From Candidatus Latescibacterota bacterium (GTDB taxonomy: Bacteria; Latescibacterota; UBA2968; UBA8231): a stretch of DNA of 64,000 bases. The translations under genes were made by a program, and so were the position numbers. Positions 1 through 28,437 of the stretch are shown in pieces. The number at the start of each line of letters is the position of its first letter. Positions within the stretch are counted from its first letter, which is position 1. The notes under the pieces are model-generated. The model worked only from the letters and a program-made list of their open reading frames with translations. It made no database searches and was not told where the DNA came from. The stretch lies in contig OZ241867.1 of NCBI GenBank assembly GCA_965203175.1, forward strand, positions 6,240,001 to 6,304,000, given 5' to 3'.

Positions 1-546
1 TCCGACGGTCTTCTGCCCGTGCAGGATGTGACCCAATGGCGAGAAGACATACGGAGAAAGCTCCTTTACAATCAGGACTTGGTAGCCGACCTGCCAGAAG
101 ATTGTCAAGCCAAGTTGCCCATTATCGAAGATCTTCTGGACAAGATTGATGTCGTGCCGAATCCGAGTCCTCAAGGGCTTCTATGGGGAGATGCAACTAT
201 ACACAATCTTTTGGTTGATGATGATGGCCATATCGTCGGCATTTACGATTTTGAGAACGGAGCGACTGGCGACCTTCTACATGACCAACTGCATGTCGCA
301 GCAGAGTTTACCCGAAAACCCCAAGAAATTTATGGTCGCGATCACTATCCGCAGGAGTTTTGGTCTGGGTATGCGGAGGCAGGTGGAGTGCGGATAGAAC
401 CAGATGAGACGTACCTTAAAGTCAGACAAGCCACCATGGGTGCTGGTTTGTGCTGGTTCTGGGAAGTGCTGGGAGCCTTTCATCCCAAAACGCCGCAATG
501 GCTGGATGACTTGGAAAGTGGATTAAAAAGCCTTGTGGATTCCTGA
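1..546 (+). CDS. Aminoglycoside phosphotransferase (APH)/choline-kinase-like protein, 5' truncated by window edge
   Basis: Frame is open from base 1. Brenner-like motif LWGDATIHNLL and metal-binding GIYDFE. Confidence 0.8.
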   Translation, partial: SDGLLPVQDVTQWREDIRRKLLYNQDLVADLPEDCQAKLPIIEDLLDKIDVVPNPSPQGLLWGDATIHNLLVDDDGHIVGIYDFENGATGDLLHDQLHVAAEFTRKPQEIYGRDHYPQEFWSGYAEAGGVRIEPDETYLKVRQATMGAGLCWFWEVLGAFHPKTPQWLDDLESGLKSLVDS

Positions 547-835
547 GGTTCGGGTGCGCATAAACGTGGAACTCCGTCCCAAACTGACTTCTAAATTTGA
601 GCTTCGGCAAATGACAGAGTCGTTTGTTGATATTGGAAATCTCCGTCTGTGGACAATCGTGTATGGCAGACAGGATATCAGGCCGAGTTGGCCAGTCGAG
701 CAACTTGCTCAACTGTTGCCGAACGCGCGTTTGGAGTTTCTTGAGAATGCCCATCACCAAATTTGGCTTGAGCATGAAGAATTGCTCCAAGGTTTCTTGA
801 GGGAATTTGTAAAGAAATTTGCCCACAGCACATAA
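533..835 (+). pseudogene. C-terminal fragment of an alpha/beta hydrolase
   Basis: IVYGRQDIRP...LPNARLEFLENAHHQIWLE matches the acid/His end of the a/b hydrolase fold. The nucleophile region is absent. The stop TAA lies within an attC-like R'' box (ACATAAC). Confidence 0.55.
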
Positions 836-895
836 CACGTCCGTGCCCAGCTTCGGCGCTGGCGCGCCTTTGCCCAACCGCTACGCGGTTCGGAT
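830..895 (+). mobile_element. Left half of an attC-like site (R'' ACATAAC plus L arm CCGTGCCC)
   Basis: ACATAAC-ACGT-CCGTGCCCAGCTTCG is complementary to 1416-1443. Confidence 0.55.
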
Positions 896-929
896 ACGCC
901 ATCCGGATGAAGATGGAAAGGACGAGAAC

Positions 930-1412
930 GTGGCGAAATCCTGTCCTGAATGCTTAAGTGATGTTCCTGAGAGCGCATTTGTATGTCACGCTTGCGGCCG
1001 AAGGATCGTGGGCAAGGAGTGCCCCGAGTGTTGTGAAGTTTCGAAAGAGACTGCAAAACGGTGCGCCTATTGCGGCCACAACTTTGAGCGCAAGGAGAAG
1101 ATTGCCAAAATTGAACCATTTAGTGCAAAGGCCTCATTGCTGGCCACGCTCTTCCTCCGGATGCGTTTGATCCCACAGGAGATTTTGCTAACTCCAGAGA
1201 AGATCATCATCCAAACGTGGGGATTCTTTTGGCTTAGCAGGTCGGACGAAGACATCCCTTGGGAGAAAATCGCCGGCTATCACTACCACGCAGGATGGTT
1301 CTGGGACAGTCTTGAAATCCAGACACGCGGCCAGACAGCCAATAGAATACGATGCCTTCAGAAACCAGACGGTCTAAGAATCAAGGAAATACTCGAGCAA
1401 ATGAAAGAGTAG
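930..1412 (+). CDS. Double zinc-ribbon protein with C-terminal PH-like (bPH) domain
   Basis: Four CxxC pairs (CPEC, CHAC, CPEC, CAYC), then a bPH-like region (EDIPWEKI...LEIQTRG). GTG start at 930 chosen over the ORF-track start at 819, which runs through the attC half. Confidence 0.7.
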   Translation: MAKSCPECLSDVPESAFVCHACGRRIVGKECPECCEVSKETAKRCAYCGHNFERKEKIAKIEPFSAKASLLATLFLRMRLIPQEILLTPEKIIIQTWGFFWLSRSDEDIPWEKIAGYHYHAGWFWDSLEIQTRGQTANRIRCLQKPDGLRIKEILEQMKE

Positions 1413-1415
1413 AAA

Positions 1416-1443
1416 CGAAGAGGGCACGGCGGGAACGTTATAG
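1416..1443 (+). mobile_element. Right half of an attC-like site (L' GGGCACGG plus R' GTTATAG)
   Basis: CGAAGAGGGCACGGCGGGAACGTTATAG pairs with 830-855. Confidence 0.55.
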
Positions 1444-1478
1444 GAAATTCCAGCCCAAGGAATTTTGCTCTTCAAGGA

Positions 1479-2399
1479 TTGCCGAGGATGGCGACGGATA
1501 AATTGCCCACATGGTTGGAGTTGTTTGCGGACGCTCTCAAACCCGCCCAAGTTGTGGGTATAGATCCTCTTCGCAAATGGTCATTGTCGCAAGTGTTTCG
1601 GCTGACCTTGGATGAAGGTCGCACTCTAATCGCCAAGCGAGGCATTCCCACAAAGGGGCCCACGGAGTTGGAAATATACCAAGAATGCCTGATCCCTCTC
1701 GAAATAGACGCGCCGACCGTTGTTGCAAGCTTCTCAAGTGAAACCGAGTATGCTTTCCTGATGGAGGATTTTCAAGGCGCAGACCTTGAACAACGGCCTT
1801 CCAATTCAGATTTCTTTGATACGGCCCGCCGACTTGCTGAAATTCGGACATCTGCAGAGAAGATCGCAGAATTCAACACTTCAAAGATCGAAAAGCACCT
1901 GCTGACCAAAGAGCAACTTCTTCTCGACCTTGAATATGTACTTGAGCACGCGGGTCGGGAGCATCAGGAGATGATCAGTTCCGTAGCGAGGCAGGCGAGA
2001 TCGGTTGCACAACACCTGGACCGTTTATACGAAGAGACGCCACCCACACTGAACCACAACGACTACCACGCAAAGAACTTACTCAATGTCGGGGGACGTG
2101 TTGTGCCCATCGACTGGGCAAATGCTAGAATCAGCCCACACCTTGGAGATCTTTGCTGCCTCATTGCTGAAGGAAGGGATCAAGGAATTCCCCAGCAAGC
2201 ATTTGTTGATACCTACACATCCACTGGGACTCAGGAGGAAGTCACAGATTGGCACCTTGATGTGGGCTCTCTTTGCTGGCATGTCCACAGTCTACAGTGG
2301 ATTCTTGAATTCGGACTGGACGCCATTCCTTCATCGAAGAATTGGGTGGCAAACTACCTAGCGGACATATCGGCCACCGTCGCTCGACTGGAACCGTAG
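1479..2399 (+). CDS. APH-family phosphotransferase
   Basis: TLNHNDYHAKNLL and IDW motifs. The start may be ATG 1488. Confidence 0.85.
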   Translation: MPRMATDKLPTWLELFADALKPAQVVGIDPLRKWSLSQVFRLTLDEGRTLIAKRGIPTKGPTELEIYQECLIPLEIDAPTVVASFSSETEYAFLMEDFQGADLEQRPSNSDFFDTARRLAEIRTSAEKIAEFNTSKIEKHLLTKEQLLLDLEYVLEHAGREHQEMISSVARQARSVAQHLDRLYEETPPTLNHNDYHAKNLLNVGGRVVPIDWANARISPHLGDLCCLIAEGRDQGIPQQAFVDTYTSTGTQEEVTDWHLDVGSLCWHVHSLQWILEFGLDAIPSSKNWVANYLADISATVARLEP

Positions 2400-2550
2400 G
2401 CTGACTCAGCCTTTGAGGGCTTCACTGCCTTGCAGCATGTCCACGCCCAATTCGCTGCCAGCAACTCCCCTTGGGCCGAGAAGATTGAAGACGTACCTGA
2501 TTTGCTCCAGTTAGGCTGAGACTATTTCTTACCCGCTAAGAAACAGTCTG

Positions 2551-9100: not shown

Positions 9101-9781
9101 ATGAGTACGCCGCCGGACGACCACGGATAGGGCCCTGAAGTTAAGCCTCGCTCAGGACACAGCGGCCGCCCCCGTATCGACAAGATCCTGAAAGAGGCAC
9201 GACGCGGAGATTTAGAGTCCGTTAAACGACACCTGAACCAGGATCCGACGCTGCTGCTGGCCAAGAGTGGCGGGCACAACAGGACGTTTCTGTGGGAAGC
9301 AACACGCGGCAATCGGGTTGAAGTCGTGCAGTTTTTATTACAAGCGGGAGCCGATCCCAATGTCCCGGGGCGGACCCGGTCGGAGATACCGGTGCTCCTA
9401 AAGCCCTACTGTATTGCACGACGCTATCGCCGATTAGAAATTGCCGAGCTGTTAGTAAAAGCAGGTTCCGTACTGGATATCTACTCGGCGTGCTTTCTGG
9501 GTGACACTGACTGCGTGCAACATAGCCTTAAGAGTGAGCCATGCTTGTTGACCAAGGAACAGGAAGACGACTCCGTCTGGCGTGTGACCCCCTTACACTA
9601 CGCCGTGGCGGGAGGCCACGAGCAACTCGCCCGATGGCTGATCAGGGAAGGCGCACTAGTGAAGCCCTATACCCGGCTGTTATGTAATACGGCCGTGCGA
9701 ATGAAACACGCGGACCTGATACCCGTGCTGGTACAGGGGGGTGCGGACCGAGATTTGGTCAAAAGCTGGGGCAAGATTTGA
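9101..9781 (+). pseudogene. Ankyrin repeat protein with an in-frame TAG at codon 10
   Basis: AAGGA RBS and ATG at 9101, TAG at 9128-9130. The same frame continues with ankyrin sequence (ARRGDLESVKRHL...TFLWEATRGNRVEVVQFLLQAGADPN) into the 9326-9781 ORF. Confidence 0.7.
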
Positions 9782-9858
9782 CGCAGTTCCTACCCCAGCA
9801 ATCCATTTACAGTGCATACTGGACAGCTTGTAGAACTCTCCTCATGGGAAGAGTCGCC

Positions 9859-10665
9859 ATGTCTGAAGAAGATATCAAACAGCTATCCTCAATGATCGAG
9901 GCGAGAAGGAAAAACGACACTAATTCAAGCTTTTTTTATCACGCATGGGTAGTGCCAGAATACAAGTGCCTGTGCATGACGATACCAAAGGTAGCCTGTA
10001 CGACGGTCAAGACCGTGCTTTATCACTTAGCAGGAAATCCCGTTCCGACGGATGGGAGCGATATACACGATCACGATATCGGGATGTTTTTAGGTCAGTA
10101 CAGCGTTGCTGATATCGTAGAGATCATCTCGTCGCCTGATTGGGTAAGATTCTGTTTTGTGCGCAATCCGTATCATCGGTTGTTTTCGGCTTACAAGTCG
10201 AAGATTGGAAACACGTGGGATACCCAATATGATTGGCTACGAGATGCGATACGAAAGAAGTATGACTACCCCATCCGGGACGGACGTCGGTCAGGTATGG
10301 TAGCCTTCGCTGATTTCGTTCGGTTTCTAGTGGATTCAGATGCAAACGTGCGTTACGAGCTACATCCAGATGCTGTTTTTGACGGTCACTACAATGTTCA
10401 GTCCCGCATTCTGATGCAAGACTTGATTCCGTACGACTTTGTCGGCCGCTTTGAAAAGCTGGAAGGTGGATTACGACAGATCTTGACACACCTAGGTGCA
10501 CCCGAGGAAACCATCGCGCTTTCCTCTGAAGTTCGCAACCCAACGATCAAAGTACCACTTGCTACGGCCTATAGTAGTGAGTTAGCAGATCTTGCCTATG
10601 AACTCTACAGAGAAGACTTCGAGGCTTTTAGCTATGATAGGGATAGCTGGCTGTTTGATTCATGA
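9859..10665 (+). CDS. Sulfotransferase (Sulfotransfer_2 family)
   Basis: 5'-PSB TIPKVACTT, 3'-PB FVRNPYHRLFSAY, YDFVGRFE, and C-terminal YREDFEAFSY. Confidence 0.85.
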   Translation: MSEEDIKQLSSMIEARRKNDTNSSFFYHAWVVPEYKCLCMTIPKVACTTVKTVLYHLAGNPVPTDGSDIHDHDIGMFLGQYSVADIVEIISSPDWVRFCFVRNPYHRLFSAYKSKIGNTWDTQYDWLRDAIRKKYDYPIRDGRRSGMVAFADFVRFLVDSDANVRYELHPDAVFDGHYNVQSRILMQDLIPYDFVGRFEKLEGGLRQILTHLGAPEETIALSSEVRNPTIKVPLATAYSSELADLAYELYREDFEAFSYDRDSWLFDS

Positions 10666-10733
10666 AGCCATACAACTGACGAACAGCAGGAGAATCGGAT
10701 TCTGACTTCTTGCGTGGATCAGAGCGCAACGCC

Positions 10734-10820
10734 ACATAACAGCAGCACTTGTGGCCTGGGGCCGACGCCCTTCGACCGAACTTGCCTCCGGCAAATTCAC
10801 AAGTGCGCGACCCGTTATAT
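10734..10820 (+). mobile_element. Intact attC-like recombination site (87 bp)
   Basis: R'' ACATAAC (10734-40), perfect inner arms GCACTTGTG/CACAAGTGC, R' GTTATAT (10814-20). Lies between two co-oriented genes. Confidence 0.75.
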
Positions 10821-10857
10821 GCAATTATTTTGGTAATCCTATATAGCGAGACTCGAA

Positions 10858-11469
10858 ATGATCTGTTCAAATTGCGGTTATTCATCGCGCCACCAAGAGA
10901 TTGTTGGAGAGAATTCCACAGTAGTCTGCCCCTCATGCAAGCTAGAGAATGGGGTATTTCACCTCCCTCTCTTTGTAGTGACAGGAGGCGGTGGATCTGG
11001 AAAATCCACCGTGGCGTGTGGGCTGAGAGGTCGGCTTGATACGTGTTTGGTGCTTGAAGCAGATCTTTTCTACCCAATTCAAGAGAGCACCAAGTCCAAT
11101 GATGACTATTGGAGCTACTTGATCTTTCTCTGCCGAGAGCTCATGCAGAACGGAAAGCCGGTGGTTCTTTTTGGCTGGGTGAATCCACGGCAGTGCGAAG
11201 CAAGTGAAGACATCGGCTACTTTTCATCTGTACACTACTTGGTGCTCGTCTCTGACAAGCACACACAAGAGGCTCGAATTCGAGGTCGATATCCCACATC
11301 AAGAGAGGAACCTCCAACAGACGAATTCATCGCGATGGCACTAGAGGCTACTCAAATCCTGAGAGATGAGGCTGACGAGAGGAGCCGAGTGACTATATTG
11401 GATACTACCGGTATGAGCGTCGATGACACGCTGGCAGAGACCGCTTCTTGGATCTCAGCCAGCCTCTAA
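10858..11469 (+). CDS. P-loop kinase (AAA_33-like) with N-terminal zinc ribbon
   Basis: CSNC...CPSC, Walker A GGGGSGKST, C-terminal LDTT. Confidence 0.8.
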   Translation: MICSNCGYSSRHQEIVGENSTVVCPSCKLENGVFHLPLFVVTGGGGSGKSTVACGLRGRLDTCLVLEADLFYPIQESTKSNDDYWSYLIFLCRELMQNGKPVVLFGWVNPRQCEASEDIGYFSSVHYLVLVSDKHTQEARIRGRYPTSREEPPTDEFIAMALEATQILRDEADERSRVTILDTTGMSVDDTLAETASWISASL

Positions 11470-26610: not shown

Positions 26611-28437
26611 ATGCCACGCATCCCCGAAGACATCCTCCAACGCATCCGCGACGCCACCGACATCGTCGACTTGATCTCCGAACACGTCCAGCTCGTCAAG
26701 AAGGGCCGCAACTACTCCGGCCTCTGCCCTTTTCACGACGAAAAAACCCCCTCTTTCAGCGTTGATCCCGACCGCCAATTCTACCACTGCTTCGGCTGTG
26801 GTGTCGGGGGCAATGTATTCAAGTTCGTCCAAGAGATCGACCGCGTCACTTTTGTCGAAGCAGTCAAATTCCTCGCCGAGCGCGCTGGCGTCGCTCTGCC
26901 CGAGCGTTCGGGGCCATCGCGCGAGGAGGCTGCAGCCGACGACGAACTCTACCGGGCCAACGACCTAGCGCAAAAGTACTTTCACCATCTGCTGCTTAAC
27001 GACGATGCCGGCGCTACTGCCCGCACGTATCTACAGACCCGTGGCCTCACAGGCGAAACCATCGCGCGCTTCGGCTTGGGCTACGCGCCGCCAGAGTGGG
27101 ACGCCTTGCTCAAAGTGGCCGGTCGCCGAGGCTTGAGTCCCCAGATCTTGGAGCGGGCGGGGTTGGCTCTGCCGCGCTCCACAGGCAGCGGCCACTACGA
27201 CCGCTTTCGCGACCGAGTCACCTTTCCCATTGCCAATCTCTCCGATCGAACCATCGCCTTCGGCGCCCGTGCCCTCCAGCCCGACCAAGAGCCTAAATAC
27301 CTGAACTCGCCCGAAACGCCCATCTACCACAAGGGCCGGGTGCTCTATGGGCTATCTATCACCCGCGACGCCATCCGCCGCCAGGATGCCGTACTAGTCG
27401 TCGAGGGCTACATGGATCTCATCAGCCTAGCACAGGCTGGTATCCAGCACGTAGTCGCCACCTCCGGCACGGCCCTGACCGAGGACCACGGCCGCCTGTT
27501 GGCCCGCTTTGCCCGCCAAGTAGTGCTGCTGTTCGACGGCGACGCAGCCGGTTCCACGGCCGCTATGCGAGCCTGCGAAGCTCTCTTAGGTACTGGCCTA
27601 GACGCCCGCGTCGTTTCGCTGCCCGCGGAGCACGATCCCGATACCTTCGTCCAAGAGCACGGCGCGGACGTGCTGCTCAAACGAGCCGAAAATGCCCAGT
27701 CAGTTCTCGATTTCTACCTCGAACAACTCGCCCAGCAGCACGATCTTTCCAGCGTCGAAGGCAAAGCGCGCGCCGTCGAAAGGCTCAAACCGCTCCTAGC
27801 TAAGCCCCGCGATGCGGTCCGCCGCGACCTGCTGCTGCGCGAAGTCGCAGAGCGTCTCTCGGTTGACGAGCAATCCCTGCGCCACGACCTGCAAGCCTCC
27901 ATGCGCCGCCCCCAACGACCGCACATGGCCGTTGCCGACGGACAGACGACCTCCTTGACCCTTACGGCCAGCCGAGCAGAAGGCCAGACGACGGCCTCGC
28001 CCGACCCGCCGCGTCACGAACTTGAATTCATGGGGCTGTTGCTCAACTTCCCGCAGCTCATACCCGAAACTGTCCGCGAATTCGCCCCCGATTCGCTAAG
28101 CGACGCCCGCATTCAGGCCCTGTGCCGCGCGCTCTTCGACCACCATGCCCACGGCAAAGCCATCGACCTTGGCATGATCATCAGCGAGCTAGAGGACGAC
28201 GCACTCGCACGCCTAGCCGCCCAATGCGCGGCCCAAGGTTTCGACGAGGAACAAGTCGAGCGGCAATGGCGTGACTATCTGCTTTACTTTCAGAAAAATG
28301 CGCTGCAAAAGCGCATCGACAATGCGCGGCAAGCCCTTGCAACGGCATCCGACGACAGCGAAATTGCCCGCATCAGCACCGAACTCGTCGCGCTCAACCA
28401 AGAGCGCCAAGCGGTCGCGGCCCAACAAAGCTCTTGA
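26611..28437 (+). CDS. dnaG: DNA primase
   Basis: CPFH..CFGC zinc finger, KYLNSPET, VEGYMD, FDGDAAG TOPRIM. Confidence 0.98.
   Translation: MPRIPEDILQRIRDATDIVDLISEHVQLVKKGRNYSGLCPFHDEKTPSFSVDPDRQFYHCFGCGVGGNVFKFVQEIDRVTFVEAVKFLAERAGVALPERSGPSREEAAADDELYRANDLAQKYFHHLLLNDDAGATARTYLQTRGLTGETIARFGLGYAPPEWDALLKVAGRRGLSPQILERAGLALPRSTGSGHYDRFRDRVTFPIANLSDRTIAFGARALQPDQEPKYLNSPETPIYHKGRVLYGLSITRDAIRRQDAVLVVEGYMDLISLAQAGIQHVVATSGTALTEDHGRLLARFARQVVLLFDGDAAGSTAAMRACEALLGTGLDARVVSLPAEHDPDTFVQEHGADVLLKRAENAQSVLDFYLEQLAQQHDLSSVEGKARAVERLKPLLAKPRDAVRRDLLLREVAERLSVDEQSLRHDLQASMRRPQRPHMAVADGQTTSLTLTASRAEGQTTASPDPPRHELEFMGLLLNFPQLIPETVREFAPDSLSDARIQALCRALFDHHAHGKAIDLGMIISELEDDALARLAAQCAAQGFDEEQVERQWRDYLLYFQKNALQKRIDNARQALATASDDSEIARISTELVALNQERQAVAAQQSS

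Follow-up and report, generated by a model that had tools for sequence, protein, structure and literature searches.

The window analyzed in this study is a 64,000-nt stretch of the chromosome of a Candidatus Latescibacterota bacterium (C1:6,240,001-6,304,000), and the 17 kb upstream of it were read as well (L006; an L006 position minus 17,000 gives the window position). Positions 1-2418 of the window are the tail of a chromosomal cassette array of about 15 kb in total, which starts about 90 nt 3' of a tRNA-Val(GAC) gene (L006 3967-4043), 13 kb upstream of the window, and ends near window position 2418. The array genes are co-oriented and low in G+C (about 50%, vs 59% for the genome), and the intergenic spaces in the upstream 17 kb carry canonical attC sites, with R'' boxes of the type ..TAAC and R' boxes of the type GTTA... 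The tail (Table 1) carries two APH-family phosphotransferase genes, the remnant of a hydrolase cassette and a zinc-ribbon gene, and is followed by a flank that adjoins the arrays of same-genus genomes wherever the positions are comparable. The stretch of the first phosphotransferase gene is 97.9% identical to positions 1-700 of L017, a same-genus MAG contig (G065) with 96% protein identity. Positions 547-575 (GGTTCGGGTGCGC..), which follow the stop codon of this gene, were considered as the 3' half of an attC site and dropped, there being no covariance model match at that place. What is left of the hydrolase cassette includes the ORF 533..835 (100 codons), a leftover frame of the remnant; Pfam gave no match for the remnant, and L017 has the full 242-aa hydrolase ORF (PF00561, 83.3 bits). 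The zinc-ribbon protein matched the Pfam families DZR (31.1 bits) and UPF0547 (32.6 bits), with a bPH_3 match of 20.6 bits that lies below the cut-off. Homologues of its gene with 62-72% identity occur in ordinary chromosomal contexts, and the scan of metagenome contigs for gene homologues likewise returned only sequences at 62-72%, with no close relative among them.

Table 1. Features of the array tail and attC sites compared with it (window positions unless L006 is given; R1, covariance model of the attC class)
Feature	Position	Strand	Details
APH-family phosphotransferase cassette gene, 3' part	1..546	+	PF01636 64.9 bits; full ORF L006 16401-17546
Alpha/beta-hydrolase cassette remnant	595..829	+	about 500-bp internal deletion near 656/657, common to copy A
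Hydrolase attC, 5' two thirds (left arm and loop)	827..893	+	R'' ACATAAC 830-836, L'' about 841-848, both loop hairpins
Deletion junction GGTTCGG/ATACGCC	893..894	+	15-16 nt with L' and GTT of R' missing vs copy A and L017
Cassette 5' leader	894..929	+	R'-box tail ATAC, RBS-like GGAAAGGA before GTG 930
Double-zinc-ribbon and bacterial-PH-like protein gene, 160 aa	930..1412	+	GTG 930 to TAG 1412
Conserved 3' UTR of the zinc-ribbon cassette	1413..1423	+	AAACGAAGAGG; as AGACGAAGAGG in L017, upstream of its own R''
3' end of a different attC	1424..1446	+	L' GCACGG.. 1424-1431, R' GTTATAG 1437-1443, expected crossover G/TT 1437/1438
Last array cassette, second APH-family phosphotransferase	1438..2418	+	gene 1479-2399, PF01636 37.7 bits
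Conserved chromosomal flank, distal array end	2419-2490 (72 nt)	+	96-99% identity in 6 same-genus genomes
Copy A attC	L006 8422-8510		R1 81.1 bits
Other array attC sites			R1 36-65 bits
Studied site as it stands	827-911		R1 53.6 bits, R''/R' pairs broken

Among the ORFs scanned beside the tRNA-Val gene, no integrase of any kind was seen. In a six-frame search of the whole genome with TIGR02249, no match exceeded the 265-bit cut-off for an integron integrase; the best of the six matches had 84 bits (at 5.48 Mb), and none of them lay less than 700 kb from the array. IntI over the cut-off was likewise found in 0 of the 30 other genomes of the genus, and in 9 of the 76 family genomes searched. A CALIN has been defined as at least two attC sites with co-oriented cassettes and no intI or intI pseudogene nearby, and the definition comes with the statements that CALIN cassettes are mostly of unknown or accessory function and with the proposal that CALINs originate by integrase loss (2016, PMC4889954). 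In the array studied here, eight covariance model matches at E≤0.001 are clustered within 12 kb, with more at weaker scores, and no integron integrase gene or pseudogene is found near it. The array fits the published definition and can, from its sequence, be classed as a CALIN. At the gathering scores of Rfam, the window gave no attC and no intron, and only two tRNAs.

Elsewhere in the genome, a 97-codon open frame on the minus strand (G000:C1:1293790-1293981), some 5 Mb away from the array, gave a 75.7-bit match to the integron-integrase model (model positions 1-64) and may be an N-terminal remnant of IntI; no attC match was reported near it. Within the upstream part of the array, two attC sites (L006 7140-7232, 36.1 bits, and L006 7244-7339, 39.9 bits) lie 11 nt apart with no gene between them, and this pair may represent an empty cassette or what the deletion of a cassette has left behind. 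One more attC of this class (window 10731-10823, + strand, R1 33.1 bits, E 3e-7) is located 8 kb past the conserved flank of the array, between the ORFs 9778-10665 and 10858-11469 in another low-G+C stretch, and may be a stray cassette or belong to a second small cluster.

The attC sites were scored with the covariance model R1, which was built from 28 aligned sibling attC sites, none of them orthologous to the left arm of the studied site. RNAalifold predicted 17 pairs for the 28 sites, 12 of which are accompanied by compensatory changes; R1 consists of these pairs and four added R''/R' pairs, and scoring was carried out with the filters off. Over the whole genome, R1 gave 11 matches at E≤0.001, eight of which fall at 6,229,227-6,240,911 (scores cover 150 of the 3786 first-look candidates). 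In a DNA search, 25 of the 76 family genomes had matches to the attC portion of the query, often with many matches each, which points to an attC class that is shared by many genomes of this bacterial family. The attC sites found here are 76-145 nt long, and their L'' (ACGTCCGTGCCC) and L'-R' (GGGCACGGCGAAAACGTTA) parts are nearly invariant among the class members, so that 5' halves pair with 3' halves regardless of which members they come from.

The original prediction drew attention to the complementarity of positions 830-855 and 1416-1443, and this is indeed present in the letters, with a duplex energy of −19.4 kcal/mol (DNA parameters). As it had also noted, the left arm includes the TAA (833-835) of the upstream frame, the ORF 533..835, and the right arm begins at 1416, shortly after the zinc-ribbon ORF has ended at 1412. 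The pairing is gapped and consists of about 5 bp of ATAAC/GTTAT, 8 bp of CCGTGCCC/GGGCACGG, and 5 bp of CTTCG/CGAAG. The pair is absent from the 25 longest of the 88 inverted pairs reported by a gapless repeat finder, because the pairing needs gaps. When the left arm was compared with all 127,944 28-mers of both window strands (mean −7.6, sd 2.3 kcal/mol), the arm duplex lay about five sd beyond the mean, and 50 of the 28-mers were as good or better; among the matches listed, these were the right arm itself (starts 1404-1416), the unrelated positions 27645-27656, and the complement of the left arm on the minus strand. When the 622-nt bottom strand is folded in isolation as DNA, the MFE and centroid structures agree in pairing the two arms with each other as the outermost helix (z −2.47, 20 shuffles). 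The complementarity of the arms is beyond chance, and it arises because the two arms both fit the consensus that is conserved within a single attC class. Of the right arm, positions 1424-1443 were confirmed as attC sequence, and positions 1416-1423 (CGAAGAGG) were not, being part of the conserved 3' UTR of the zinc-ribbon cassette, which is also found in L017. The CGAAG of this UTR contributes the innermost 5 bp of the arm pairing by chance.

In integron cassettes the attC boxes follow the consensus RYYYAAC for R'' and GTTRRRY for R'. The composite 830-1443 has an R''/R' inverted repeat, made of ACATAAC and GTTATAG with 5 bp of ATAAC/GTTAT between them, and each of the two boxes deviates from the consensus at one position. 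It is 614 nt long, about 530 nt of which separate the loop from L', and so lacks the compact size of an attC. It also lacks a single origin, its left half being orthologous to the hydrolase attC and its right half to a site with another loop in a metagenome contig (X3).

The left arm belongs to the attC of the hydrolase cassette. Positions 827-893 correspond to positions 1-65 of R1 (58.7 bits, E 8e-16, a 3'-truncated match) and are contiguously homologous to intact sites in three other places. The block 595-1411 is duplicated 9.4 kb upstream (L006 8190-9021, hereafter copy A; the studied block is copy B) with 97.7% identity over 832 columns, and copy A has an intact attC with the zinc-ribbon gene located after its R' box. 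L017 also has an intact attC (92.1 bits), followed by the same leader and gene. The same-genus genome G022 has the same hydrolase end and an intact attC, after which comes a different cassette, the zinc-ribbon gene being absent. Compared with copy A, 15 nt are absent from copy B after GGTTCGG, and the next two letters are different; the ATAC behind the junction is the tail of the R'-box consensus (AuacGAA after GUU in the covariance model). The same ungapped junction occurs in a 110-nt contig of metagenome run X2 (record 6, 824-933), and as this contig crosses 824-933 without gaps, the junction is not an assembly error. The ends of the deletion share no microhomology.

Copies A and B and L017 were compared at homologous columns, where L017 is the odd one out at 12 sites, B at three, and A at four; columns that were misaligned or non-homologous were left out (24 of 36, 1 of 4, and 6 of 10, respectively). 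This pattern and the shared deletion in the hydrolase gene make A and B sisters, ((A,B),L017), and the intact attC ancestral. By this comparison, copy B lost L'-R' secondarily through a derived deletion of 15-16 nt. Copies A and B differ at four positions in 595-893 (619, 729, 771, and 849), all of them G>A on the + strand, and at none of the 516 nt of 896-1411 (binomial P of about 0.02). The uneven distribution suggests a later homogenisation or conversion of the gene segment and not a simple duplication, and the uniform direction of the changes suggests a strand-biased mutation process. The A at 849 is unique to copy B among the genomes, with copy A, L017 and most contigs differing from it; it recurs in the X3 contig in which the downstream cassette is preceded by the intact site, and may have arisen by a fortuitous G>A mutation or by conversion over a short stretch. 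In both copies, a frame with a TTG start extends across the hydrolase remnant and the attC and on into the zinc-ribbon gene (window 819-1412; L006 8414-9022), and the 15-nt deletion does not shift it. This frame was taken as chance because the homologues start at the position of GTG 930.

The gene between the arms appears as an ordinary cassette in its relatives. The leader 894-929 is found in identical form after the intact R' of copy A and of L017. After the stop codon, L017 continues with AGACGAAGAGGACCCGGCGGC and then GTGTAAC ACGTCCGTGCGC, an R''-L'' of the same class whose R'' (GTGTAAC) is exactly complementary to the R' (GTTACAC) of this very cassette; an R''-L'' at this place means that the gene forms an ordinary cassette and comes with an attC that belongs to it. 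A deletion into the next (GNAT) gene has cut this attC in L017, and only its 5' half is left. The zinc-ribbon gene of L017 also has a premature stop (CAG>TAG at L017 2901-2903, the position of window 1332), and this copy is probably a pseudogene. The distant homologues (those in metagenome contigs and seven genome loci) gave no R1 match and showed no R''/R' pattern by eye, and having no attC match, they say nothing about the attC of the cassette.

The right arm is the end of another site. Positions 1424-1446 correspond to positions 66-88 of R1 (13.5 bits, E 5e-4, a 5'-truncated match), and Logan contigs were compared for four metagenome runs, labelled sponge or marine and each from a different study (X1-X4). 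An intact version of this site was found in one of the runs: record 18 of X3 has an intact attC with a different 36-nt loop, which ends in the letters of the right arm and runs on into the same downstream cassette with 98.5% identity over 479 nt (seven differences). Within the 76 family genomes, relatives of the downstream APH cassette reach about 72% identity at most, and no orthologous upstream site is readable there. The first 26 nt of this cassette (window 1433-1460) recur with 96% identity at G030:C2:4225674 and 4233927, in a genome of another family, and this recurrence may reflect a shared cassette leader.

Other contigs join the same parts in other ways. Record 1 of X1 has the gene, the right arm and the downstream cassette contiguously (896-1617, no gaps), with 107 other letters in place of 595-895, and the left arm is absent from it; the zero depth of X1 in bins 604-858 carries no weight by itself, and the joining contig was relied on. 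In X3 and X4, the gene is followed by an R''-L'' of the L017 type and 141-142 nt more (first 30 letters read), and in X2 by an end of the copy A type. Contigs of X2 and X4 begin at 1437 and 1440. X3 also contains an intact hydrolase attC followed by yet another cassette, and in a variant of X2 and X3 the hydrolase gene is fused to GTTAC and the leader. Judged from these contigs, natural sponge-associated populations contain several alternative junction types.

We consider it likely that the apparent gene within an attC represents two neighbouring sites of a decaying array, each of which has lost the half opposite to the one retained. The original prediction had offered this as one of two readings, and it is borne out by the intact versions of both sites elsewhere. 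The other, that a gene was captured into the loop of one attC in a snapshot of cassette genesis, is not supported on either side: the attC of the left arm is complete before the same gene in copy A and L017, and the right arm derives from a second attC, found in X3 in intact form and carrying a different loop there. A search of relatives had been proposed, with two complete attC sites around the gene as the observation that would speak against a split site; the first of them was found, as an intact attC before the gene, and of the second, after the gene, only the 5' half. It had further been proposed that the letters left after deletion of 856-1415 in silico would score as one attC, which did not hold, as they gave two HMM fragments of 13.6 and 7.1 bits. 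With an HMM of the same 28 sites, the homology-guided join 893/1424 scored 69.2 bits, compared with 69.0 bits for the intact hydrolase attC of L017, 58.3 bits for that of copy A, and 47.8 bits for the site as it stands, and the bottom strand of the join folds at −26.1 kcal/mol (copy A, −24.8 kcal/mol). The high score of the join does not discriminate between the readings, since a join of whichever two siblings of the class would do equally well. The two remnants are complementary in the model, as positions 1-65 and 66-88 without gap or overlap, and an exact abutment at 65/66 from two independent deletions would be a coincidence of, by a rough estimate, a few percent.

The abutment is the chief point on the side of a truly nested gene, in which one event would have placed 894-1423 inside a single attC between the loop and L', or have moved the 16-nt L'-R' block past the gene. 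Such an event would also agree with the score and fold of the join, which are on par with those of intact sites, with the A849 that is common to the uninterrupted X3 site, and with the gene segment being identical in A and B while the hydrolase and attC part is not, as if the segment had been copied or converted more recently. However, the start of the insert would have to coincide exactly with the R'-box tail and the leader that are seen after the intact R' in copy A and L017, and the tree ((A,B),L017), together with the shared hydrolase deletion, makes the intact site ancestral. In its R'' and in both flanks, the left arm corresponds to the hydrolase attC, whereas the X3 site differs in the loop, and the final six letters of that site do not align to the left-arm flank; X1 has the right junction without the left arm, and the insert contains no transposase or reverse transcriptase. 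We know of no mechanism that inserts a promoterless ORF between the loop and L' of an attC, and we regard a nested gene as unlikely by a wide measure. It is hardly to be expected that the 614-nt composite works at present, with the arms folding on ssDNA and an IntI acting in trans at 1437/1438. The predicted fold, with the arms as its outermost helix in the MFE and centroid structures, and the presence of all attC model positions, each exactly once, would suit such a site, as would the IntI genes in 9 of the 76 family genomes searched and the observation that sites delivered as ssDNA recombine at similar rates whatever their loop length, as given in PMC8946536. However, the same source puts the cost of long loops under replicative conditions at up to 4 logs, the insert lies between the loop and L' and not at the loop tip, with about 530 nt to bridge, the genome has no IntI and none of the 30 other genomes of the genus has one over the cut-off, and the contig of X1 without the left arm indicates that the pair is not conserved. 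A chance complementarity of unrelated sequences, with no attC involved, might be argued from the equally good pairing of the unrelated positions 27645-27656 with the left arm and from the fortuitous innermost 5 bp (CTTCG/CGAAG), but this reading is refuted and has next to no probability left, since both arms match the attC model in order and register (E 8e-16 and 5e-4) and both have intact orthologues.

For the two neighbouring sites, each minus its opposite half, the following history is proposed. The ancestral order would have been the hydrolase cassette with its intact attC, the zinc-ribbon cassette and the attC belonging to it, further cassettes if there were any, and the attC before the APH cassette. 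One deletion, of 15-16 nt, would have removed L' and the GTT of R' from the hydrolase attC. A second deletion would have joined the 3' UTR of the zinc-ribbon cassette, which supplies 8 nt of the right arm, to the L'-R' of the last attC, taking out the gene's own attC and perhaps more. Its endpoints probably lay in the UTR motif, which reads GGACCCGGCGG in L017, and in the similar L' motif, GGGCACGGCGG. These motifs match at 9 of 11 positions, which makes a slipped or microhomology-mediated deletion plausible, and this microhomology accounts for the right breakpoint only. The microhomology mechanism, like the number and order of the deletions, is presumed in this scheme, and recombination presumably does not take place at this locus at present. 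Three mechanisms acting in one step were considered as well, namely, an IntI crossover at G/TT, an unequal exchange between UTR and L', and a palindrome-stimulated deletion, and none of them yields both junctions. Deletions are frequent in this region: at least five others are found in the same few kb across the compared sequences, that is, the 500-bp hydrolase deletion, the loss of a PD40 cassette before copy B, the loss of UTR and attC in copy A, the fusion into the GNAT gene in L017, and the fusion of the hydrolase gene to R' in X2 and X3. Hairpin-forming sites have been described as prone to deletion via slippage or SbcCD (PMC8946536). In the absence of IntI, nothing maintains the sites.

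According to its composition, the array can be compared with several known systems. Sedentary chromosomal integrons have species-specific, uniform attC classes, for example, the Vibrio cholerae repeats. The array studied here resembles them in that the attC sites of one lineage are highly alike and the halves of different sites are interchangeable in pairing; it differs from the V. cholerae repeats in belonging to another sequence class and to a family of sponge-associated bacteria, with most genomes of the genus being without IntI. The array behaves like a sedentary chromosomal array minus the integrase. Insertion sequences of the IS1111-attC group and group IIC-attC introns are known to nest in attC sites, which they target specifically, and such inserts encode their own transposase or reverse transcriptase. 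In these cases, as in the present one, an attC is parted by several hundred bases or more of foreign DNA. However, the insert here is a cassette leader with a zinc-ribbon/PH-like gene, and the parts of the attC come from two different sites. The intervening DNA was found to contain no transposase, whether of the DDE type or another, and no reverse transcriptase or maturase; its sole ORF is the one with DZR, UPF0547, and weak bPH_3 matches. An association of group IIC introns with integrons has been reported (PMC7923331). With the CALINs as outlined in PMC4889954, the array has in common the clustered attC sites, the co-orientation of the array, cassette functions that are mostly unknown or accessory, and the lack of intI nearby, while it spans about 15 kb with at least nine model matches, keeps the same chromosomal flank in several same-genus genomes, and contains half-sites, which are not part of the CALIN description given there.

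If the composite site did work, the hydrolase remnant and the gene would be mobilised together as a unit by recombination in trans, and array decay would offer a way for a gene to end up within a functional attC, with the cassette boundaries redrawn; a recombinogenic composite would also be a natural test of how much DNA is tolerated between the loop of an attC and its L'. With two neighbouring sites each minus its opposite half as the preferred reading, the locus is a further example of known array decay and not a snapshot of cassette birth. Above all, it calls for caution: where the attC sites of an array share one conserved sequence, the remnants of different sites mimic a split site, and such a picture should not be taken for cassette genesis. 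The locus also documents how an array decays when it has no integrase, through many small and large deletions whose ends often lie in or at the attC hairpins.
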